A DNA stretch of 64,000 bases from assembly GCF_002854065.1 (NCBI RefSeq), contig NZ_CP024147.1; one strand, written 5' to 3'. Under the pieces are notes generated by a model. The model saw only the letters and a program-made list of their open reading frames with translations, was not told where the DNA came from and searched no databases. This DNA comes from Escherichia coli. Lineage in GTDB: Bacteria; Pseudomonadota; Gammaproteobacteria; Enterobacterales; Enterobacteriaceae. Position 1 is the first letter of the stretch, and every line of letters begins with the position of its first letter. The position numbers and the translations under genes were made by a program. Of this stretch, positions 15,002 to 59,962 are shown piece after piece.

Positions 15002-16544
<1,543 letters not shown>

Positions 16545-20396: not shown

Positions 20397-21201
20397 ATGG
20401 CTATCCCTGCATTTGGTTTAGGTACTTTCCGTCTGAAAGACGACGTTGTTATTTCATCTGTGAAAACGGCGCTTGAACTTGGTTATCGCGCAATTGATAC
20501 CGCACAAATCTATGATAACGAAGCCGCAGTAGGTCAGGCGATTGCAGAAAGTGGCGTGCCACGTCATGAACTCTACATCACCACTAAAATCTGGATTGAA
20601 AATCTCAGCAAAGACAAATTGATCCCAAGTCTGAAAGAGAGCCTGCAAAAATTGCGTACCGATTATGTTGATCTGACGCTAATCCACTGGCCGTCACCAA
20701 ACGATGAAGTCTCTGTTGAAGAGTTTATGCAGGCGCTGCTGGAAGCCAAAAAAACAAGGGCTGACGCGTGAGATCGGTATTTCCAATTTCACGATCCCAT
20801 TGATGGAAAAGGCGATTGCTGCTGTTGGCGCTGAAAACATCGCTACTAACCAGATTGAACTCTCTCCTTATCTGCAAAACCGTAAAGTGGTTGCCTGGGC
20901 TAAACAGCACGGCATCCATATTACTTCCTATATGACGCTGGCGTATGGTAAGGCCCTGAAAGATGAGGTTATTGCTCGTATCGCAGCTAAACACAATGCG
21001 ACTCCGGCACAAGTGATTCTGGCGTGGGCTATGGGGGAAGGTTACTCAGTAATTCCTTCTTCTACTAAACGTAAAAACCTGGAAAGTAATCTTAAGGCAC
21101 AAAATTTACAGCTTGATGCCGAAGATAAAAAAGCGATCGCCGCACTGGATTGCAACGACCGCCTGGTTAGTCCGGAAGGTCTGGCTCCTGAATGGGATTA
21201 A
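20397..21201 (+). pseudogene. dkgB: 2,5-diketo-D-gluconate reductase B (aldo-keto reductase) interrupted by +1 frameshift in an A7 run (20748-20754)
   Basis: Two overlapping ORFs (20397-20771 and 20704-21201) that join into one AKR protein; total span 805 nt = 804+1; frame switches at …[17 protein letters not shown]. Confidence 0.85.
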
Positions 21202-28382: not shown

Positions 28383-28459
28383 GGAGCGGTAGTTCAGTCG
28401 GTTAGAATACCTGCCTGTCACGCAGGGGGTCGCGGGTTCGAGTCCCGTCCGTTCCGCCA
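28383..28459 (+). tRNA. aspV: tRNA-Asp (GTC); integration site of the downstream island
   Basis: Identical 77-nt sequence to aspU at 20158-20234. Confidence 0.97.
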
Positions 28460-28590: not shown

Positions 28591-29637
28591 TTACTCCAGC
28601 GCATCCCATTTCTCCAGCAGTTCTACTGGAATTTCATTTATTACCTCCGAGAAGCGTTTTCCGACCAGGCGTTCTGCCTGGCGCAGCAAAGGAATGGACG
28701 GGCTGCTCGGTTCGCTGTGCTCAAACCAGCGACGGATAACACGCAGGCGTTCCAGCGCGTCGTTCCGGTCGCGGATTTGCCGGGGTTCTGCGCCGGTCAT
28801 CGGTGATATTTCCTCCGAGATACGCACCGGTAGCGCAATCTGCTCTGCCTGCATCTGTTCAGTATGATCGATGGTGGCGTTCTCCGGCTGTTCAGCCTGT
28901 GGTTGTGGCAGGATCTCCGGCGTGGTGCTCTGCACTGCTCCCGGCAACAGGGCTAGCAGTTGCGTCAGACGGGAGAAGTCCGGTGCCTGGTCATTCAGCG
29001 TTTCACGCGCATGGCGTTGCAGCCGCTCAGTGGTCTCTGCTGCCTGGCGAAAGGCATCCAGCGGCAGTGTGCCGCGCGCTTCCAGGTCTGCCAGTTGCTG
29101 GCGTACCGATTCTGGTGCCAGCGCATCCGCCGGACGTAATGCAGATAGCGAACGCTCCACATCCCGTACCTGAAGGCGCATGGCAGCATTATTTGACAGT
29201 GTAATGCCACGAATATCCGCCATTACGCCTTCGTGGTCCAGCAACGCCGCCAGCGCGTTACTGCGTGCCACCGCAGCATCTTCGGCGGTGATATCTTCAG
29301 TCGCGAGCAGTTGAGGATGGATGGCGTCCGGGTACGTGGCGCACAACGTTTCCAGCAGCGTGAGCGTCTCCGCCAGTCCCCTGGCACCGGCCTGCTGGAT
29401 ACGGCAGCGCAGCAGGACAACCAGAATGCGGATATCTTTGCTGCGCATCAGCAGACGATGGGCGTCCCGCTCAAGCTCCGCCCAGTTAATGTTTTCAGGC
29501 GTACTGACAAAATCGCCATATTGCGCTTCTTCACGCGGTGCGGCGCGGGTGAACAGCAGCAGGTATTCCGGATCGTACTCCAGATCCGGGCCGCAGGGGC
29601 ATTCCGCCGAAATTGGGTCAGACAGGAATATTTCCAT
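28591..29637 (-). CDS. tssA: T6SS ImpA-N-domain protein (TssA-like)
   Basis: 348-aa ORF; N-terminus …ISAECPCGPDLEYDPEYLLL… resembles the ImpA_N signature. Confidence 0.7.
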   Translation of the reverse strand: MEIFLSDPISAECPCGPDLEYDPEYLLLFTRAAPREEAQYGDFVSTPENINWAELERDAHRLLMRSKDIRILVVLLRCRIQQAGARGLAETLTLLETLCATYPDAIHPQLLATEDITAEDAAVARSNALAALLDHEGVMADIRGITLSNNAAMRLQVRDVERSLSALRPADALAPESVRQQLADLEARGTLPLDAFRQAAETTERLQRHARETLNDQAPDFSRLTQLLALLPGAVQSTTPEILPQPQAEQPENATIDHTEQMQAEQIALPVRISEEISPMTGAEPRQIRDRNDALERLRVIRRWFEHSEPSSPSIPLLRQAERLVGKRFSEVINEIPVELLEKWDALE

Positions 29638-29647
29638 TTAATTATCC

Positions 29648-30676
29648 TCAGTGCGCCAGGTAGTGTTCTGGTTCGAAAATCATGCCCGTCACCGGGTTGT
29701 CGTGCATGGCTTTACCCGCCCATGCGGTCCAACCCAGTTGGTACGGACCACCGGTAACAGCCGGAGGGGCGGCGTGGGGCTTTAGCTGTAGCTCAATTTC
29801 CCAGCAGTATTCAAAACCACTAAAGGCGCGGACCAGTTCGGTCAGGACAGGCAGGTTATTGCCGCCAGGCAGAAAACGTCGGTAATCCTCCAGCGTCAGC
29901 GGGCCGATAACCAGCCGGAACTTATACTGCATGTCCGGCACGGCCTGGCCGATAAGTGCACCATTGCCAATAACGGAAGAGGGGGCAGGCATCCCCAGCC
30001 GGGTTATCTCATCGTCCGCCACGGCTATCCAGTGCAGCACATACTCTTGTATCCGGAAAGGTACACCGAAATAGTGCGCCAGCGTGGTGGCCAGACCGTC
30101 CGGATTGCGGGACTCACGCACCAGATGGGCCGATGCCGCCAGACGAGCGTGAGCCGGCAACGGGCTGTCGGCACTCTCCCGCAAATCCTGCCCGCTGAGG
30201 CTGGCGACATAAAAGGCAAAGCGGTCATGTTGCGGTTTATCCAGACCGCCCCCGGCGGACTGGGCGCTGCGCCATGCCTGGTAAAACTGCGTCAGCCAGC
30301 GGTGATGAAAAAGATCAGAAAAACGGGTTAGCGTCGGGTCTCTTCGGCTTTCAGTCCGGTTGCGCGCCAGTTCGCTGTAGTGCAGCGGCAGTGGACCGTT
30401 CGGCCCCCACAGCCCGAGACTGTACAAACTGATGTGCAAGCGCTCTTCCTGCCAGCTCACACTGGCGATTTCCCGTGGCGCAAAGGTTAGCGCGGGCGTT
30501 TGTCCGAGGCGAAATTTTTCTATCCGTGGTTGCCAGGTGTTGCCCGCCGGAACGCTACACAACTGCACATCAACGCGGCGCATCAGGTTCAGAAAACCGT
30601 AACGCCAGGGGGTTTCCTGCGCCTGAGTGAAATCGTTGCTCATACGCTTCCCCGCTGTCCCGCCCTGACAGGCCAA
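29648..30676 (-). CDS. tssG: T6SS baseplate protein TssG
   Basis: 342-aa ORF immediately downstream of and overlapping the tssF-like ORF; size and operon position fit TssG. Confidence 0.7.
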   Translation of the reverse strand: MACQGGTAGKRMSNDFTQAQETPWRYGFLNLMRRVDVQLCSVPAGNTWQPRIEKFRLGQTPALTFAPREIASVSWQEERLHISLYSLGLWGPNGPLPLHYSELARNRTESRRDPTLTRFSDLFHHRWLTQFYQAWRSAQSAGGGLDKPQHDRFAFYVASLSGQDLRESADSPLPAHARLAASAHLVRESRNPDGLATTLAHYFGVPFRIQEYVLHWIAVADDEITRLGMPAPSSVIGNGALIGQAVPDMQYKFRLVIGPLTLEDYRRFLPGGNNLPVLTELVRAFSGFEYCWEIELQLKPHAAPPAVTGGPYQLGWTAWAGKAMHDNPVTGMIFEPEHYLAH

Positions 30677-32523
30677 GTCATAATTTTACCGCGCTGCATG
30701 CTGTGCAGCGTCATCTGCGAGAAGGTATTAATGGAAACATGGCGGGCGATATAGTGTTCCAGCACCAGGCCGAACAGATACGGACTGATGCCGGAAAAAC
30801 CTTCTTCATCCACCGTCAGTTCACAACTGACGCCACGCCCATAGACCAGTAGTCCGGAACCGGGCAGACGGCGGGTGACCGGGGTCGTTTTACAACCAAT
30901 CAGGCTGCGCACCTGGCGCGATTGCGGACTGTCATGAGCAGGAATAAACAGGTTCAGCAGATCTCGCAACGCCTGGCCGCCGGTACGGTGATCCAGATCG
31001 GCCAGCGGCAGATAATTAAAAGATAACTGGCGGATCAACCGCCATGCCATCTCACGTTCAGCCAGCGGGGGCTGCGGCGAGCGTGGCGGGCGGATAAGCC
31101 CTACGCCCGCCACCGGGATGGCCGCATCCACGGTTAGATCGTCCCGGCCATTGCGGGCAATAAGACAGGGCAGATCGCGGTTAGTGACCATGGCCGTGAT
31201 GGTGATGTGGCGCAGATTTTCCGGGTACGGCGCTTCATACTGGTCAACCAGCGACAGGAACACTTCCGAGCCCGTATAGGGGGTACGGGTGCCGTAACGG
31301 CGGGCGTTTTCTGATAAGCGGCGGGGCTCCCGGCGCAGGGAAAAATAACGTCCGTGATTGCCTTCATCATTATTGCGGGTGTGGTAGAGCGGGCGAAAGG
31401 CCATCTTCCGTGTGGTGTCGGTTTCCAGCCCTTCCACTTCCTGGACCGAGAACACCTCATAATCCAGCGGATGGGTTCTGTCCACCACCAGATGCTGTTC
31501 CGTCGTGCTGTGCGTGACATCGATCCGGGCGGTGACGCGGGGAAACAGGTTGATAACCGGGGTACAGAACAGGCTGAACTGTGCCGCATTTGTCTGGTGG
31601 ATCAGCCAGTCCGGCGGCAGGCGGTTCAGCAGGATAACAATCTCCGCCACGCCACCGTCAATTTTCTGTAATCCGGCAGACAGGCCTGTCGGGGTGAAAA
31701 AATAGAAGCGTTCCGGACAGGCAAAATATTCATGCAGCAGGTTATGACCGTGAAACACGTTCCACGCCAGCGGCAGCAGCCCCTGATCCGGCTCCAGGCC
31801 TTCGTACATAACGGGCTGTTGCAGATTCACATCCAGCGCGCCGTCAAAATGTCCCGGAATGCCAGCCAGGGTCGCGATGGCGCTGGTATGTAGAAGTTCT
31901 AACATGTGTGAGGCCGTACGCTCCTCGCCGCAGAGATAAAACGGCAGCCTATCCAGTCCTGCAAGCTGACTGAATGTTAGTTCACCAAAGGTGCGCAGGG
32001 TAATACGCAGCGCCCCGGCGACGTGAATGTTGGCCGGCAGGTAGCGGTGCAGGGCAGGCATATCCGGTGGCGCGGCGGTCAGTCGCGCCTCTTCGATGGC
32101 GAGCGGCCACAGCGTTACATCCTGGCTGCTGCGAAACTGGCAGGCAGTGCTTTCGCCTTCCGGAATGGCGGAGAAAAAGGCCGTGTCGCGCGGGACGGTA
32201 AATCCTTTCGCCAGATCGCCTTCTTCCGTATCGGGATGCAACTGCGCCACGCTCATTGAGGGCGTGGGTGTGACGTAATTGGGGCTGACCACTTCCAGCA
32301 GGCGCTGGGTGAAACGGGGGAATTCAGCGTCAATTTTTAGCTGCGTGCGGGCGGTCAGGAAGCTGAAGGCCTCGACCATTCGCTCTACATACGGATCGGC
32401 AATATCCGTTCCCTGCATGCCCAGCCGGGCGGCGACTTTGGGATGACGGGCGGCAAATTCGGCTCCCGTTTCCCGCAGATAGCTCAGTTCGCGGTTGTAG
32501 TATTCCAGTAGCCGTGGATCCAT
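30640..32523 (-). CDS. tssF: T6SS baseplate protein TssF
   Basis: 627-aa ORF; N-terminus MDPRLLEYYNRELSYLRETGAEFAARHPKVAARLG… is typical of TssF. Confidence 0.75.
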   Translation of the reverse strand: MDPRLLEYYNRELSYLRETGAEFAARHPKVAARLGMQGTDIADPYVERMVEAFSFLTARTQLKIDAEFPRFTQRLLEVVSPNYVTPTPSMSVAQLHPDTEEGDLAKGFTVPRDTAFFSAIPEGESTACQFRSSQDVTLWPLAIEEARLTAAPPDMPALHRYLPANIHVAGALRITLRTFGELTFSQLAGLDRLPFYLCGEERTASHMLELLHTSAIATLAGIPGHFDGALDVNLQQPVMYEGLEPDQGLLPLAWNVFHGHNLLHEYFACPERFYFFTPTGLSAGLQKIDGGVAEIVILLNRLPPDWLIHQTNAAQFSLFCTPVINLFPRVTARIDVTHSTTEQHLVVDRTHPLDYEVFSVQEVEGLETDTTRKMAFRPLYHTRNNDEGNHGRYFSLRREPRRLSENARRYGTRTPYTGSEVFLSLVDQYEAPYPENLRHITITAMVTNRDLPCLIARNGRDDLTVDAAIPVAGVGLIRPPRSPQPPLAEREMAWRLIRQLSFNYLPLADLDHRTGGQALRDLLNLFIPAHDSPQSRQVRSLIGCKTTPVTRRLPGSGLLVYGRGVSCELTVDEEGFSGISPYLFGLVLEHYIARHVSINTFSQMTLHSMQRGKIMTWPVRAGQRGSV

Positions 32524-32538: not shown

Positions 32539-33033
32539 TTAAAAAAACGTAATGCGGCTCTGCTCCATATCCAGCGCGCTACGTACCCGGAATGCAGTCG
32601 GATACGGCTGCGTGAGGATCTCGCCGCGAATTTCAAACTGTAATGTGTTATGGCCACTCTGGCGGCGCTCATCCTGAAGTGGGATGATTTGCAGGGTGGA
32701 CGCTTTCAGCCGGGGTTCAAACCGGGTGATGGTTCGCAAAATGGCCCTGCGGATATCGTCCCACTTGTGCTCATACAGAAAGCTGCCCGCCAGTGGCGGC
32801 AGGCCGTAGTTAAGTACGGATGCTGCCGCGTACGGATAACGTGCAGCATCAATATCATCTTCATGGCTGACGGTGTTGAGCAGAAATGACAAATCCCGGC
32901 GGATGATCTCCTTAAGCTGAACCGGGCTGACGCTGATACCGTGGTCGCGTTTCTGGTTTGGGGCGTCGTCACACAGGCGGTCAAACAGCGTGGGCAGCAG
33001 GTGATTGCCTGGACGCTGGCGGGAAGCGCTCAC
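32539..33033 (-). CDS. tssE: T6SS baseplate protein TssE (gp25-like)
   Basis: 164-aa ORF …LFDRLCDD… with GTG start overlapping the upstream stop (GTGA). Confidence 0.7.
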   Translation of the reverse strand: MSASRQRPGNHLLPTLFDRLCDDAPNQKRDHGISVSPVQLKEIIRRDLSFLLNTVSHEDDIDAARYPYAAASVLNYGLPPLAGSFLYEHKWDDIRRAILRTITRFEPRLKASTLQIIPLQDERRQSGHNTLQFEIRGEILTQPYPTAFRVRSALDMEQSRITFF

Positions 33034-33860
33034 GCGTCGCTTCCTTCAGCGGTGTTAAAGGTACAGGTGGACAAATCCAGCAGGCTGATATCGCCGTGAC
33101 CGGTGAGCCACACCCTCTGACCCAGCGCCTGTACCAGTGTCTCTCCCGGACCGTCCTGCCAGACTGTTTCCCGGCACAGACGCAGGGAGTCGGCAGCCTT
33201 TTCAGAGCCGCTGTAGCGGGGAAACAGCTAGGCACTGTGTGTATCGCCATTGTTCAGGGTGACGTTGACGGGTTTCCAGATCAAATCGATCAGATGCGCA
33301 GGCTGCGGCGATTTCAGCGAACAGATTTGTGAAAACGGCAGCCAGATATATGCTCCGCCCGCGATCAGTTCGAGTACCGGACCGGTACGGGAGTCGCTGT
33401 CGCTAATCCAGTCAAATGCGCCGCCATTCCACTGCCCGGAAGTGTCTGTTATGGCCTCAAGCGCGCGGCTGCGGTGGGTGTCAGCTTCCTGCGCTTCACC
33501 ACGGGCGTTACAGGCGAGGGCGGTCAGCAGATCCTCCATCCAGGCGGGCGGCGGGAGAATAACACCGGGTCGCTGTTCGCCCTGAAAGCAGACGTGGCGG
33601 TATATCTCACAGCGGATCAGCTCGCCAAATACCTGCGCTTCGCGGGTATAATTTGCGTCCATCCGGGCGCATAGCTGGATCTGTTGCAGTGCCCGCGACC
33701 AGTCGCCTGCCACGCAAAATAACTGAAACAGGCTGTGGCGGCTGGAGGCCTGCGCTGGGTGCATCCTGACCTGCAGCTCTGCCATCTGAATGCCCTCCGC
33801 CAGGGAATAATCCCGCAGCAGTGCCGACAAGGTAGTCGGTAGCTTGTTAATGTTTGTCAT
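33030..33860 (-). pseudogene. tagJ: T6SS accessory protein TagJ/ImpE (SciE)-like, interrupted by an in-frame amber codon at 33228-33230
   Basis: 210-aa ORF stops at TAG; the same frame continues about 65 codons to a TGA that overlaps the tssE start, giving about 275 aa in total. Confidence 0.55.
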
Positions 33861-34761
33861 GAGATATCTCTCCGTGTTGTGCCGGGTTTATCCGGTAATG
33901 GCTGTCAATGCCAATGATGCGATGCTCTTTCCGTGTCAGATCGGGCAGTACGGTGCTATGCGCTGTTTCCGGGGCGTATTCCGGGGAAAGTAAATGCAGG
34001 ATATCAGGGGGAGTCTTTTCGACAGGCCAGGCTGTTTCACCTTCGCCGGTGGCATCCAGTACATTGAGAATAGCGTCAATGCTTAACCCGCCAGTGACCA
34101 TATCCTGCAATGTCTCGGCTTCGGTGACCAGGTCACGCAATGAATCCAGATCCTGCGAGGTGGGCTCTTCGTTAAAGGGAAAAGGATCAGCATGGCGATG
34201 AAGATCTTGTTCGGGAGATAACAACGCCTCGCGGTATTCCTGATAAAGTCGGGTCAGGGCATTCCCTTTTTCCGCACCTTCTCCGGTGGAGGAGGCTCCA
34301 TGAACAGGAATGATATCGAATGGATTTTGTGATGTCAGATGCTGCTGCCTGAACCAATCCAGATCCAGATATTCGGTTATTGCTTCCGACGTGATGGCAG
34401 TCTGCGATATCGTTTTTACTGCGCTCAGGTCCGGAGATGATGGATTGCCATGTACAAGGCACCATGAAGATAACCCCCATTCTATCAGGTCGCCTTCATT
34501 CAGACGCATACGGTGATGAGGTTCCACAATCTGGTCGTTTACCGTACAGCAATATTCGGTAGACTGATTGATAATCCACCATGCTTCTTCGTGGCGGGTC
34601 AGAGTGAGGGCAATCTTTACATCATCATTCACCTTAAAAACAGGAATCCAGGGAGAGGTAACGGTGAAGATAATTTGTGTTCCTTCAGTCGCGTAAATTG
34701 TGTTATCGGCGATCCCGTGCGCCTGTATTTTTTGGAGTCCCCACGTAATATTTGGTTTCAT
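33847..34761 (-). CDS. tagH: T6SS-associated FHA-domain protein (TagH/Fha-like)
   Basis: 304-aa ORF; N-terminal region fits an FHA-like pattern (…WWIINQSTEYCCTVNDQIV…LNEGDLIEWG…); first gene of the minus-strand T6SS block. Confidence 0.5.
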   Translation of the reverse strand: MKPNITWGLQKIQAHGIADNTIYATEGTQIIFTVTSPWIPVFKVNDDVKIALTLTRHEEAWWIINQSTEYCCTVNDQIVEPHHRMRLNEGDLIEWGLSSWCLVHGNPSSPDLSAVKTISQTAITSEAITEYLDLDWFRQQHLTSQNPFDIIPVHGASSTGEGAEKGNALTRLYQEYREALLSPEQDLHRHADPFPFNEEPTSQDLDSLRDLVTEAETLQDMVTGGLSIDAILNVLDATGEGETAWPVEKTPPDILHLLSPEYAPETAHSTVLPDLTRKEHRIIGIDSHYRINPAQHGEISHDKH

Positions 34762-35208
34762 TGTGTATCACTGTGTAGAGTGTTTCTTTCAAAAGAATAA
34801 GTTTTCTAAATTTTTAGATAAGCAATGCTGATCAATTTACTTTATCAATATAAGTTTTCGCGGAAATATATAGTGGTGATTTTTAATTTAATATATTCAT
34901 GGTGTGTATGAAATTGACTTGCTCTATTGAATATCACCATGAAAAAGATACTACCTGCTATATTACATAGTGTTCTGTGATATGCATCATTGTTTCATTC
35001 TGCCTTTTTGATAATTCTATTAATTAGAAGTTTTAATCGGTACAGTTATGTTTATGTATCATTTATATGTTATTACATCATTAGGTGTAACAGATGGACA
35101 CTCCTGTTTCGCGCAGTGCACTATATGGAAAGCTAACCAAATCTTTGTTTAGATCTTTGGAATCTGCGACAACGTTCTGTAAATTACGTGCTAACCCTTA
35201 TGTCGAAC
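34762..35208. promoter_or_regulatory. AT-rich intergenic region upstream of the minus-strand T6SS operon (former divergent promoter region)
   Basis: About 450 bp of strongly AT-rich non-coding sequence between tagH start and IS2. Confidence 0.45.
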
Positions 35209-35219
35209 TGGATTTGCCC

Positions 35220-36125
35220 CTATATTTCCAGACATCTGTTATCACTTAACCCATTACAAGCCCGCTGCCGCAGATATTCCCGTGGCGAGCGATAACCCAG
35301 CGCACTATGCGGATGCCATTCGTTATAATGCTCGAACGCCTCTGCAAGGTTCTTTGCTGCCGTTAACCCGTCTGGTTTGGGCATGATACTGATGTAGTCA
35401 CGCTTTATCGTTTTCACGAAGCTCTCTGCTATTCCGTTACTCTCCGGACTCCGCACCGCCGTGTTCTTCGGTTCAAGTCCCAACATCCGGGCGAACTGGC
35501 GTGTTTCATTAGCCCGGTAGCATGAACCATTATCCGTCAGCCACTCCACTGGAGACGACGGAAGATCGTTGCCGAAGCGGCGTTCCACCGCTCCCAGCAT
35601 GACGTCCTGTACTGTTTCACTGTTGAAGCCGCCGGTAGTGACCGCCCAGTGCAGTGCCTCACGATCACAGCAGTCCAGCGCGAACGTGACACGCAGTCTC
35701 TCTCCGTTATCACAGCAGAACTCGAACCCGTCAGAGCACCATCGCTGATTGCTTTCTTTCACGGCCACTCTGCCTGTATGTGCCCGTTTCGATGGCGGTA
35801 CAGCAGGTTTTCGCTCAAGCAACAGCGCATTCTGGCGCATGATCCGGTAAACACGTTTGGCATTGATCGCAGGCATACCATCAAGTTCTGCCTGTCTGCG
35901 AAGCAGCGCCCATACCCGACGATAACCATACGTGGGCAGCTCTCCGATAACATGGTGTATACGGAGAAGCACATCCGTATCATCAGTGTGACGACTGCGG
36001 CGGCCATCCATCCAGTCATCGGTTCGTCTGAGAATGACGTGCAACTGCGCACGCGACACCCGGAGACAACGGCTGACTAAGCTTACTCCCCATCCCCGGG
36101 CAATAAGGGCGCGTGCGCTATCCAC
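35220..36125 (-). CDS. insD: IS2 transposase OrfB (InsD)
   Basis: 301-aa DDE transposase ORF inside IS2. Confidence 0.92.
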
Positions 36126-36448
36126 TTTTTTGCCCGTCCATATTCAACGGCTTCTTTGAGGAGTTCATTTTCCATCGTTTTCTTGCCGAGCAGGCGCTGG
36201 AGTTCTTTAATCTGCTTCATGGCGGCAGCAAGTTCAGAGGCAGGAACAACCTGTTCTCCGGCGGCGACAGCAGTAAGACTTCCTTCCTGGTATTGCTTAC
36301 GCCAGAGAAATAACTGGCTGGCTGCTACACCATGTTGCCGGGCAACGAGGGAGACCGTCATCCCCGGTTCAAAGCTCTGCTGAACAATTGCGATCTTTTC
36401 CTGTGTGGTACGCCGTCTGCGTTTCTCCGGCCCTAAGACATCAATCAT
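36083..36448 (-). CDS. insC: IS2 OrfA (InsC) HTH regulator
   Basis: [25 protein letters not shown]… inside IS2. Confidence 0.9.
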
Positions 36449-36539
36449 CTGTTCTCCAATGACTAGTCTAAAAACTAGTATTAAGACTATCACTTATTTA
36501 AGTGATATTGGTTGTCTGGAGATTCAGGGGGCCAGTCTA

Positions 36540-39390
36540 CGAACTGACGCATTGGTTGCATCAGTTAATACAACAACCAGAGAATGACATTCACAATGTG
36601 CTTCGACATTATCAAATAACATCTGCTGATGTTGAGAAGGCGTTAATTCAGCAATTGAATATATTGCCTGCCGGAGCGAGTGTAATTAACGATTTTTCCC
36701 ATCATATCGATCTTTCTGTTGAAAAAGCCTGGATGTTGGCAAGTATCCGCTTTGGCGATCAAAAAATTCGTAGTGGATGGTTATTACTTGCCTGGTTAAC
36801 CACGCCAGAATTGTGTCGGGTGTTAAAAAATATTTGTGCGCCATTGGCAGAGCTACCGGTAGATGAACTATTAGATATTCTTCCGTCTTTAATCACTTCA
36901 TCTCCTGAATTAACAGAAATGCCTTATGACGGCTCGGATTTAAATTCTGCAGTACCGGGGGAAGCTAGCCAGGTCTTTGCCGGCGAATCAACTGGAAGCA
37001 AATCCGCGCTGGCGAAATACTGTCAGGACATGACTGCGCTGGCCCGTGAAGGCAATATCGATCCGGTCACCGGTCGCGAACACGAGATCCGTACTATGAC
37101 GGATATTCTGCTGCGCCGTCGCCAGAACAACCCGCTACTGACCGGCGAAGCGGGAGTCGGGAAAACGGCAGTGGTGGAAGGATTCGCGCTGGCGATTGCC
37201 GGGGGGGAAGTACCGCCTTCACTGCGTAACGTGCGGTTGCTTTCACTGGATGTTGGCGCGCTGCTGGCTGGGGCGTCCATGAAGGGTGAGTTTGAATCTC
37301 GCCTGAAAGCGTTGCTGGAAGAGGCCGCGCACTCGCCGCAGCCGGTAATCCTTTTTGTTGATGAAGTTCACACGCTGGTGGGCGCTGGTGGGCGCTGGTG
37401 GTACATCCGGCACCGTCGCATCACGGGCAGTGTGCAGTCCTGGCAGTATACGCCGCGCGGGCTGCTGGCGCTCCATACGGATGAAGAGAAACGGGAGACG
37501 CGCTGGCAGTACACCCCGGAAGGGCTGGTTGCCAGTCTGAGCAACGGCAATGGGGCTCAGTACCGGTTCAGCTACGACGGCGACGGACGGCTGACGGGAG
37601 AACAGCGCCCGGACGGTCTGATACGGATGTTTGCGCTGAATGCGGGCGGGTTCCCGGTCATCATCCAGACGCAGGGCACAGAAGGAGGGATGCGTAATGA
37701 GCGACAGGAGCGTGATGCGCTGGGCCGCCTGCTGCGCAGTGACACGCAGCACAGTACACGGACCTTCAGCTACAACCGTCTTGACCAGATAACGGAAGTG
37801 ACGCTCACCCCCACGGAAGAAGGGGAACGGCTGCACCACATGCAGGCGGACAGGGTGCGCTTTGCGTATGACCGCAGCGGCTGGCTGACGGCAGAGCACA
37901 GCGTGCACGGCAGCATAAAGTACCGGCGCGATGCGCTGGGCAATCCCACCGATATCACCTTACCGGACGGGCAGCATCTCAGCCATCTTTACTACGGCAG
38001 CGGGCATCTGCTCCAGACGGCACTGGACGGTATCACGGTCAGCGAATATGAGCGTGACAGTCTGCACCGTCAGGTGATACGCACGCAGGGGAAACTGGCG
38101 ACGTTCAGCGGCTACAACGCCGACAACCGGTTAAGCTGGCAGCGCAGCCTGCCAGGTGGCAGCCAGAATCCACAGCAGGCCGGTACTCCCCCGGCGCAGA
38201 ACGACAGCGTGACGGCGCGGGACTATATCTGGAACGCAGACGGTGAAGTCGGCGGCATCAATGACAAACTGCGCGGTTGCCTGGTGTTCAGCTATGACCG
38301 CAGCGGCTGGCTGACCAGCCGCACGGGGCAGATGTATGACCATGACCATTATTATTACGATAAAGCGGGCAACCTGCTGACGGATGAGTATCAGGGAGCG
38401 GTGCTGGACAACCGCCTGCCGGGCTACGGGCGTGACCGTTACCGCTATAACGAATGGGGCGAACTGACAGAGCGCAGGGACCAGCAGCTGGAGTGGAACG
38501 CGCAGGGCCAGTTAACGCGGGTCATCAGCAGCAACAGCGAGACGCGGTATCAGTACGATGCGCTGGGCAGGCGCATCATCAAGGCGACCAGCAATCTCCA
38601 TACCGACCGGGGAGAACGAAGCCGGACAACGTTTGTGTGGGAAGGGTTCCGGCTGTTGCAGGAGACAACGTGGCAGGGAAAGCGGACATACCTGTACGAC
38701 GCGGAACAGCCGTACACGCCGGTGGCGGCCATCACCGGGCGCGGAGAGAGTCAAAAAATCTGGTATTACCATACGGACCTGACGGGCACGGTACAGGAGG
38801 TGACCGCGCCGGACGGGACGCTGGTGTGGGCGGGCTACCAGGCGGGATTTGGTGAAAACCGGGGCGACATCAGCAACAGCGGGGCGTACTTTGAACAGCC
38901 GCTGCGGCTGCCGGGGCAGTATTATGATGAAGAGACGGGGCTGCACTATAATCTGTTCAGATATTATGCGCCGGAGTGCGGGAGGTTCATAAGTCAGGAT
39001 CCGATAGGGCTGGCGGGTGGAATAAACCTCTATGCTTATGCTCCTAACCCAATTAGCTGGATCGATCCCTTTGGACTGGATTTACACCATATAATACAGC
39101 AAGAAATTTGGAAGGAGTTCAAAACAGATCTTAAAAAAGTCACCGGATATGTACAAAATGTCACGAAAAAGGCAGCCGACATGACAAACCTAATCGATCT
39201 GGATAAACCTTTTCATGGTAATCACCCAGCTTATAGTCAATATGTAAGAGAAGCAATCGAAGACCTGAAGGCTAATAATAACTTAACGTTGAAAGGATTA
39301 AGAGATTTACAAGATGATCTTAAAAAGAAAATAGGTGAAGCTCAAAAGTCTGGCAAAAATCTAAATGATTATTTTAAATCGGGGTGCTGA
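36540..39390 (+). CDS. chimeric ORF: 5'-truncated ClpV/TssH N-domain and AAA+ D1 Walker A region fused in frame to an Rhs YD-repeat core with a C-terminal toxin domain
   Basis: Residues …[13 protein letters not shown]…[13 protein letters not shown] are ClpV-like, then YD-repeat sequence (…[13 protein letters not shown]…), then the DPFGL junction and a roughly 110-aa C-terminal tip; no native start codon, as the track start lies inside the IS2 inverted repeat. Confidence 0.75.
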
Positions 39391-39845
39391 TTATGAGATA
39401 CAAAAAGGTAACTGTTTCTTATGAGCCTGCAATCACAGGAAATAGTAAAGGAGGGTATTCAGTAGAAATAAAAGATAGACTCTCTTTTAATAGTCCTACG
39501 GAGAGAAAATACTTTGAGTCTTTTTTTGAAAATAATGATGAAAACTATAATAGAGTTTTTATCAATAATTTTGAAACTATTGATACAGTTTATCTAAAAA
39601 ATTTAATTTTATTTCCAAAACAAAAAAGGATAAAGGAAATTGATATGCTAATATTTTCCCCGCACAAACTCGGACTTAGTTTTATGATATCGGAGAAATT
39701 ATATAATATTATAACTAAATTTAAACTTCCTCCGTTCAATAAGATACCAGCTCAAATCAATACATTCAATACGAAGTATTTTTTGATCGGTTTCCCAATG
39801 ATACCAAAAGAAAGAATTGATTTAGATAAATCTATATTTTTTTGA
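39384..39845 (+). CDS. putative Rhs immunity protein (cognate to the toxin tip at 39060-39390)
   Basis: 153-aa AT-rich ORF whose ATG overlaps the rhs stop (ATGA); typical toxin/immunity arrangement. Confidence 0.6.
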
Positions 39846-41038
39846 TACAAAAAAAAGAAGTGAATTTAATTTCAAATCATATGATGAATTCATCAAAATG
39901 GATTACTCTATTATACCTAAAAAAATATACCCAGATGTATTTTATGATGTCGATGTTATCGGTTTTCAGGGCAAAGGGCTATTTTTTTCTGACAGACTGC
40001 TTGATGCAATACAAAATGCCGGGATTGTAGGGTTGCATATCGGTGACACGGAAATGGAAATGAATCCGTAGATTGATACAGGAACTTTCACTTTTAAAGG
40101 GATCTTTGGTGTCTGCGATTTTATCTTTCTGTTGGTTATTTAGCAATCCGGGAACGATATTAATCCGCTGAAGATCCTGATTTATCTACGGGGTAAATGC
40201 CCGAAATATAGAAGGTTTTATATTGGATCATATGAAAGGGGATCTTAACCTTGAAAATGCCATCAGGAAAGATGGTGGATTTTATCATAGTTATAATGAA
40301 AATAATCTTGCAGAGGGACGAAAATATTTAAGCACGGAAGAAATTAGCAAAATCCTCGAAAAGGGTAGTGTAACTGATGTTGATAGTAAAGGGCACTTTA
40401 AAGCAGGAGGATGTTGAATGAATAGTATAATAAATAAAAATATAAAAAAATAGATATGATTACTAAGGGTATTAAAAAATATCCTCTTGGAGAGGACAAG
40501 CAAGAGATCTCAAAATTAATTTGCGATTTTGAAAAAATGCCACGTAAAGAATGTAGTGTGTTTTATGGTGTTTTTTTTAATGATAGTGAACTAGTAGATA
40601 AATTAATTAAGATTGCAAGATTTTATGAGGGTGATGATAAAATAACCATAAACGTAATATCCTCTTTGGGAAATATGTTCGTGCGATACAAAATATATCC
40701 ATCAGAAGAATTATATAATCTTTTTTTTCAACTTGAAAAGTAAGAGGAAAGTTAATTATTATGTTTCTTTGTTCATTTTTAGATTTCCTCAATTTAGGAA
40801 TTATAAATTTAAATGGGACTATATTTTATCTATTCCAGATATTTCACCAAAAGATAAATCAAAAAGAAACTTTTACTCTATAGTCAATAATATCGTTTTG
40901 TCGGGAGAAACGATCCCTGTTGAGTATAAAAATAGAGTTATTAGCTTGCTGGAAATGTTTAGTAAGGGAAATATGGGAAGCGTGTATAATGATGAATATA
41001 TAGATTTAATTAATAGGCTAGTTAAGCAACACGGCTAA
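39846..41038 (+). other. AT-rich array of degenerate orphan toxin-tip and immunity ORFs (39898-40071, 40223-40417, 40456-40743, 40733-41038)
   Basis: Short ORFs in shifting frames, homopolymer A/T runs at frame breaks, and a degenerate Rhs junction-like sequence near 40160-40195. Confidence 0.45.
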
Positions 41039-41322
41039 GTCGGAACGTAATAATCTCGGTGAATATTGGTTTTTATTCTCCCGGATCTCCGCCAGTACTA
41101 ACAGGCGAAAATCCGGGAGGACTGATATTACGGCTGGATAATATCGTCAATAAACACCACACCATCAGTAGTACGCAACCAGCGCGGCGCTTTCAGTTTT
41201 GCCGCAAAGAACCAGATCAGTTCACAAAGCAGCCCCGTCAGGGGTTGTTCCATTTTAGATCCCTGCGCCTGTTCCGTCAGGATCTGGAGTAATACCTCGC
41301 AATATTCACACAATTGTAGTGG

Positions 41323-42735
<1,413 letters not shown>

Positions 42736-58534: not shown

Positions 58535-59818
<1,284 letters not shown>

Positions 59819-59962
59819 CCACTACATAACCTGAATCTGAGGCAGCACCTGGCACGGCTGGGACGGAAGTCGCTGTCGTTCTCAAAATCGGTGGAGCTGC
59901 ATGACAAAGTCATCGGGCATTATCTGAACATAAAACACTATCAATAAGTTGGAGTCATTACC

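Follow-up and report, generated by a model that had tools for sequence, protein, structure and literature searches.

Does the tagJ-like gene in the T6SS (type VI secretion system) locus of an Escherichia coli strain end where its open reading frame (ORF) now ends, or was a longer gene cut short? The question was raised by a stretch of 64,000 nucleotides from contig NZ_CP024147.1 (RefSeq assembly GCF_002854065.1), called the window below, in which an amber codon interrupts a frame on the minus strand at 33030..33860. A preliminary description, made from the letters alone, had proposed that a single nonsense mutation truncates a protein of about 275 aa to 210 aa. Our analysis came to the same view. 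We estimate a probability of about 0.92 that tagJ, an ImpE-family T6SS accessory gene, is a recent pseudogene within a T6SS remnant, made by one G-to-A change on the sense strand (C to T on the plus strand at 33229) that turned Trp211 into an amber codon.

The tagJ frame starts with ATG at 33860 on the minus strand, reaches TAG at 33230..33228, and then stays open until TGA at 33032..33030. By translation, the full original frame has 277 codons, and the TAG at codon 211 shortens the product from 276 aa to 210 aa. The TGA overlaps the GTG start codon of tssE at 33033 in the form GTGA (33033-33030); the positions, the count of about 65 further open codons and the overlap had all been described correctly. 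The ORF that is still translatable (33228..33860, minus strand) encodes the TPR-like N-terminal part and the first half of the ImpE domain, as judged by translation and Pfam. The orphaned 3ʹ part (33030..33227, minus strand) consists of 65 codons and the TGA, and a Pfam and frame scan showed no usable start in it. The first in-frame GTG after the TAG is codon 250 and no in-frame start occurs earlier, which makes it unlikely that a separate C-terminal TagJ fragment is translated. At 59% GC, an open run of 65 codons has a P value of about 0.11 by calculation and shuffling, and is not significant alone. Therefore, the case for a pseudogene rests on homology and not on the open frame.

The closest intact gene compared was tagJ of E. 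coli PapRG-06-5 (WP_045178072.1, 831 nt), which was identical to the window at 829 of 831 nt. The two differences lie at nt 144 (L48F) and at nt 632, where TGG (Trp211) became TAG. Alignment placed TGG as the ancestral codon at 33228..33230, since plus-strand position 33229 was C in all relatives bearing TGG. The neighbours of the intact gene (tagK, tssE, tssF, tssG and tssA) and the GTGA overlap are those of the window, whereas W211*, L48F and the decay of the cluster set the window apart from PapRG-06-5. The 198 nt after the TAG were identical to intact alleles, which indicates that the nonsense lesion would be young.

We compared the protein with the Pfam ImpE profile (PF07024; 122 positions, gathering score 25 bits). 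The restored 276-aa TagJ scored 138.7 bits over profile positions 1-122, and the encoded 210-aa product 75.5 bits over positions 1-64 only. The 65-aa tail alone scored 50.1 bits (E = 3.5e-13) over positions 69-122, which is twice the gathering score. A search of 5.8 billion proteins returned full-length relatives of 274-276 aa from Escherichia, Shigella, Salmonella, Enterobacter and others, and the SAWLF/GAWLF motif around the affected Trp was retained in them. Homologs that end at the TAG, with an unconserved stretch behind it, were what the preliminary description had named as speaking against its own proposal. The homologs instead continue through the tail: TagJ/HsiE1 of Pseudomonas aeruginosa (PDB 4UQX, 4UQY, 4UQZ) aligned to residues 11-269 of the tagJ frame with an E value of 3e-47, and Vibrio VPA1032 (PDB 1ZBP) to residues 17-264. 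NCBIfam gave no match for either the 276-aa or the 210-aa protein, so the name TagJ rests on Pfam, PDB and RefSeq annotation. Full-length members of the family have a TPR-like part and a complete 12-stranded barrel in about 260-280 aa; the ancestral frame has this architecture, and the encoded 210-aa product does not. The stop is premature relative to orthologs and the rest of the frame is recognisable, as in a nonsense pseudogene. By these alignments, the gene is a descendant of the TagJ/ImpE family and is now a pseudogene.

What the truncation removes was considered on the structure of HsiE1, in which an N-terminal tetratricopeptide domain is combined with a 12-stranded beta-barrel (the ImpE fold), with the N terminus of TssB wrapped around it (Forster et al. 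2014, PMC4239648). In that structure, Phe10 of TssB sits in an HsiE1 pocket of Phe154, Trp171 and Pro181, and Arg18 of TssB forms a salt bridge with HsiE1 Glu273, where only Glu or Asp occurs (PMC4239648). With the offset between the numbering of the paper and that of the PDB entries inferred from residue spacing, these four residues map to L134, W151, P161 and D257 of the tagJ frame; L134, W151 and P161 are encoded before the TAG, and D257 only after it. The stop thus takes away D257 and ImpE profile positions 65-122, half of the barrel. The truncated TagJ is predicted to be able neither to fold nor to dock ClpV to the sheath, and we infer a loss of TagJ function. The restored TagJ resembles HsiE1 (PA0086, of the P. 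aeruginosa H1-T6SS) from end to end, in the TPR-like part, the ImpE barrel and probably, on the mapping above, the TssB-contact residues (W151, P161, the hydrophobic L134 and the acidic D257), and both genes lie in a T6SS cluster, adjoin tssE and are divergent from tssH. Unlike HsiE1, however, the window copy stops at codon 211, without half of the barrel and without the acidic partner of TssB Arg18, and TssB, TssC and most of ClpV have been deleted from its locus.

The T6SS island is anchored in the chromosome at tRNA-Asp (aspV; 28383..28459, plus strand), as found by a tRNA scan and by comparison with relatives. From there, four genes of the minus strand were intact or open by ORF comparison: tssA (28591-29637), tssG (29648-30643), tssF (30640-32523) and tssE, which encodes a baseplate protein of the GPW_gp25 family (32539..33033, intact). 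A 94-nt tRNA-His called by ARAGORN inside tssF (30764-30857, minus strand) was set aside as a probable false positive by its length and position. Beyond tagJ lies an intact tagK (33847..34761, minus strand), which overlaps the tagJ start by 14 nt and showed no difference from PapRG-06-5. The original overlap of the tagJ stop with the tssE start is now 198 nt away from the point where ribosomes would terminate, and a Shine-Dalgarno-like AAGGAAG is retained upstream of tssE. A polar effect of the TAG on tssE is uncertain, and moot in a cluster without sheath genes.

The other side of the island has been reduced to a fusion. A 5ʹ remnant of tssH (clpV; 36540..37410, plus strand), delimited by comparison with relatives, is joined directly to the C-terminal part of an Rhs gene (37411..39390, plus strand), to which the junction comparison showed it to be fused in frame. 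PapRG-06-5 retains the complete cluster (tssH through tssM, then vgrG and rhs), and relative to it about 24 kb was deleted at the junction 37410/37411. The loss comprised the rest of tssH, tssB, tssC, tae4/tai4, hcp, tssJ, tssK, tssL, tssM, tagF and vgrG. An IS2 element of 1331 bp (35209..36539, minus strand), 100% identical to copies in other E. coli, interrupts tssH after its first 115 nt and is flanked by a target duplication of 5 bp (CGAAC). Two relatives, L005 and L009, carry the TAG and the deletion but not IS2 and are otherwise near-identical; therefore, IS2 was inserted later.

The tssH remnant contains three tandem Chi sites (GCTGGTGG) at 37374-37401, with a spacing of 10 nt. In intact tssH there are two, at gene nt 945 and 955. 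The third was added by a tandem duplication of 10 nt (GCGCTGGTGG), which shifts the frame such that the 5ʹ part of tssH reads into the C-terminal toxin region of Rhs (ORF 36502-39390). Where relatives have the duplication and no IS2, the product is a ClpV-N/AAA-Rhs-AHH fusion of 986 aa; relatives lacking the duplication have separate ORFs of 354 aa and 652 aa. A similar deletion in E. coli XJ6-3 (L015, junction at 15056-15069) was tried as a case of the same deletion with an intact tagJ and was rejected, because its Rhs-side junction differs. The tssH breakpoints of the window (after ..TACATCCGG) and of XJ6-3 (after ..TACATCCGGTA) are only 2 nt apart, and both lie 9-11 nt 3ʹ of the tandem Chi sites; the Rhs breakpoints are about 250 nt apart. 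The two deletions were apparently independent, and illegitimate recombination associated with Chi and RecBCD could be behind them. Strain 2012C-4221, whose short tssH bears the annotation 'AAA family ATPase', was considered as a third break near the Chi sites and was also rejected, as it has an unrelated internal deletion of tssH (nt 1087 to 2225). As a separate observation, some relatives with the TAG allele (L024-L026) carry a Tn3-family transposon with tetR and an MFS efflux gene, of the tetracycline-resistance type, right after the 354-aa tssH remnant.

In E. coli CUWW06 (RefSeq NZ_CP182139.1), the window was colinear with 99.94% identity over 33.8 kb, and tagJ has the same TAG and the same F48. 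Decay has gone further there: the first 18 nt of tagJ have given way to an IS3-family element, and tagK and the tssH remnant are lost along with most of the Rhs fragment. The window itself has two IS3-family copies (41311-42573 and 58566-59826). In CUWW06 (L003, 37713-38975), one IS3-family copy is inverted directly against the tagJ start, and the segment corresponding to 33843-41310 of the window, IS2 included, is missing, which suggests a rearrangement or deletion mediated by the insertion sequence.

The preliminary description had further proposed that tagJ decayed after the T6SS had lost its core genes. The loss of core genes was confirmed as above; the proposed order is compatible with the data and goes no further than that, as the TAG and the junction always occurred together in this lineage. 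The tagJ mutation is probably neutral, in a gene that no longer served a purpose. All TAG211 loci of sufficient length for a judgement were decayed remnants, and no window-type junction with TGG was found, since every contig with the window-type tssH remnant had the 210-aa TagJ. The reverse order, in which tagJ was knocked out while the T6SS was still intact, possibly under selection, and the core genes were deleted afterwards, is the alternative that fares best, although we regard it as unlikely. The lack of an allele combining the window-type junction with TGG leaves room for it, and so do other tagJ nonsense alleles (W107*, described below) that stand beside tssH, tssB, tssC, hcp, tssJ and tssK. 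On the other hand, no TAG211 allele with an intact cluster was found among the TAG-allele loci examined, XJ6-3 demonstrates that a tssH-Rhs deletion can exist with tagJ intact, and nothing points to selection. The changes specific to the lineage within the remnant amounted to one synonymous, two missense and one nonsense substitution, and one further missense substitution is unique to the window.

We then considered why codon 211 was hit. On the plus strand, 33228..33232 reads CTAGG where intact alleles read CCAGG, a recognition site of Dcm, and the changed base at 33229 is the internal C, the position that Dcm methylates. Deamination of 5-methylcytosine to thymine at Dcm sites is the classical cause of the amber hotspots in lacI (Coulondre et al. 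1978, reviewed in PMC12606429), and is normally countered by very-short-patch (VSP) repair by Vsr (PMC2715241). In tagJ, 88 single-nucleotide changes can create a nonsense codon (36 of them G:C to A:T transitions), and the gene has three Dcm sites; only two of the 88, at W107 and W211, fall on a methylated C. On the sense strand, the two sites read CCTGG and occupy tagJ nt 317-321 and 629-633. The TAG probably arose when a 5-methylcytosine at this site deaminated and escaped VSP repair. As at the lacI hotspots, a G:C to A:T change at the second C of CCAGG created an amber codon and apparently recurred independently. Unlike there, the methylated C is on the antisense strand, giving TGG to TAG rather than CAG to TAG, and the case comes from natural populations, where methylation is predicted from the sequence, and not from a collection of selected mutants.

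A Dcm origin would explain both why codon 211 is mutated on two haplotypes and why W107 is mutated as well. A targeted search that tested the hotspot prediction, and that provides no rate estimate, found exact 106-aa TagJ products on record, and their DNA showed CCTGG changed to CCTAG at codon 107 (W107*). These alleles (L044 10001-10831, L045 5012-5842 and L046 1667-2254) occur on two backgrounds, distinguished by single-nucleotide polymorphisms (SNPs) at a distance of 3 nt to both sides. The genes tssH, tssB, tssC, hcp, tssJ and tssK are still adjacent there, with tssH split in L044.

The amber at codon 211 was found on three allele backgrounds: the window allele, an L48 allele and a Shigella flexneri allele. 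The L48 allele, which is the window allele without L48F, was present in 112 blocks of independent assemblies; therefore, the TAG preceded L48F. The intermediate of the opposite order, F48 with W211, was looked for and is not on record. The S. flexneri allele differs from the window allele at 19 nt. Its closest TGG allele among complete E. coli genomes was only 97.7% identical, with no neighbour at one difference, so the nearest variable sites on either side of the TAG were used instead. These are nt 557 and 696, where the S. flexneri allele shows G..G, the ancestral state, and the window, PapRG-06-5, XJ6-3 and M18 show A..A; TAG and TGG were each found on both backgrounds. From these flanking sites, TAG211 either arose twice or moved by a conversion tract of at most 138 nt.

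A single origin of the TAG, with spread between alleles of the S. flexneri type and of the window type by homologous recombination, seems improbable to us, somewhat more so than the reversed order of events discussed above. The locus is mosaic, with a divergence between L019 and the window of 0 to 22 differences per 300 nt, and from nt 558 to 695 the two TAG alleles are identical, save nt 580 in 4 of 5 loci of the S. flexneri type; both points are in favour of recombination. However, the tract would have to fit into the 138 nt between sites 557 and 696, and where T:G mismatches arise in heteroduplex DNA, VSP repair acts in favour of CCAGG and against CTAGG (PMC2715241). Moreover, the two mutations at W107, with flanking SNPs that differ 3 nt on either side, are not explicable by conversion, and the rest of the T6SS was lost by different events in the two lineages, the tssH-Rhs deletion in one and IS2 next to a broken tagK in the other.

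The S. flexneri-type remnant (L020, CP026810.1 9100-15259; L019) shares with the window the order tagK-tagJ-tssE-tssF-tssG-tssA at aspV and the TAG at codon 211. It differs in the allele background and in its extra lesions: tagK is broken into pieces of 99 aa and 97 aa, and a 10-bp deletion splits tssG. Immediately upstream of tagK comes IS2, and after it phage and IS material. The literature describes T6SS remnants in S. flexneri and, for the T6SS of Shigella sonnei, inactivating mutations that are widespread (PMC10924462).

The same repair chemistry allows a more speculative proposal, in which W107 and W211 are hypermutable sites dependent on Dcm and Vsr, repeatedly switched off and possibly switched on again, making tagJ a reversible on/off locus of low frequency. 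Vsr is also able to promote CTAGG to CCAGG changes (PMC2715241). We consider such a role very improbable.

It is more improbable still that ribosomes pass the amber, through programmed recoding or with the help of a suppressor tRNA, and still make a functional full-length TagJ. The frame after the TAG is perfectly intact, and in E. coli termination at TAG is relatively weak when the next base is C. Nevertheless, every inspected locus with an intact T6SS had TGG at codon 211 and TAG occurred only in decayed loci, the five tRNAs of the window include no Gln, Trp or Tyr suppressor candidate, and with TssB, TssC and full-length ClpV deleted, readthrough would serve nothing.

A sequencing or assembly error over a tagJ that is really intact, conceivable in that the TAG differs from intact alleles by one base only, is refuted by the recurrence of the same TAG in the complete CUWW06 genome, in S. 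flexneri genomes, in 10 of 10 fetched loci of the window allele (NCBI, ENA, Logan; all 831 nt identical save one synonymous site in two) and in 8 of 8 loci of the L48 allele. Equally untenable is a TagJ that naturally ends near residue 210 with an open frame behind it by chance: although 65 open codons in a row are no rarity with this GC content, the tail belongs to ImpE and the homologs extend through it as given above, each of the 10 other annotated E. coli genomes inspected had an ORF of 831 nt that ran to the GTGA shared with tssE, and in 52 of 104 complete genomes matching a 61-mer around the TAG, one base differed.

Several points weigh against the reading of tagJ as a gene broken by methylcytosine deamination and decaying neutrally. 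The non-function of the 210-aa product is a prediction from structure. The substitutions specific to the lineage are too few in the remnant to demonstrate relaxed selection. In principle, a conversion tract of up to 138 nt could account for the second TAG haplotype in place of a second mutation. The dcm gene lies outside the window, and the Dcm origin is read from the bases of the site. Finally, the W107* alleles were deliberately sought, and are a test of the prediction without an unbiased rate.

Elsewhere in the window, at 20397-21201, dkgB is broken into overlapping ORFs of 124 aa and 165 aa, and the CUWW06 annotation gives the gene as frameshifted. It adds a further pseudogene to those of the lineage.

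The lesion in tagJ is already annotated in RefSeq: the same allele in CUWW06 (ACNHKQ_RS05200) was called a pseudogene with an internal stop by PGAP. It is an ordinary pseudogene and nothing new in kind. In independent public assemblies (NCBI isolates, ENA metagenomes and Logan runs), precisely this 210-aa product occurs in 68 blocks, from sources named Shigella dysenteriae or E. coli. Annotators would do best to give 33030-33860 as one pseudogene, and not as a 210-aa 'impE family protein' and a 65-aa ORF as in some public records. Although the mutational mechanism has been textbook knowledge since 1978, the tagJ lesion would illustrate neatly, in nature, the classical amber hotspot at 5-methylcytosine, apparently a recurrent one, and this apparent recurrence calls for caution in using the TAG211 SNP as a marker of common descent. 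For the biology of these bacteria the finding matters little: it adds a further step to the erosion already known for the aspV-linked T6SS of Shigella and related E. coli.

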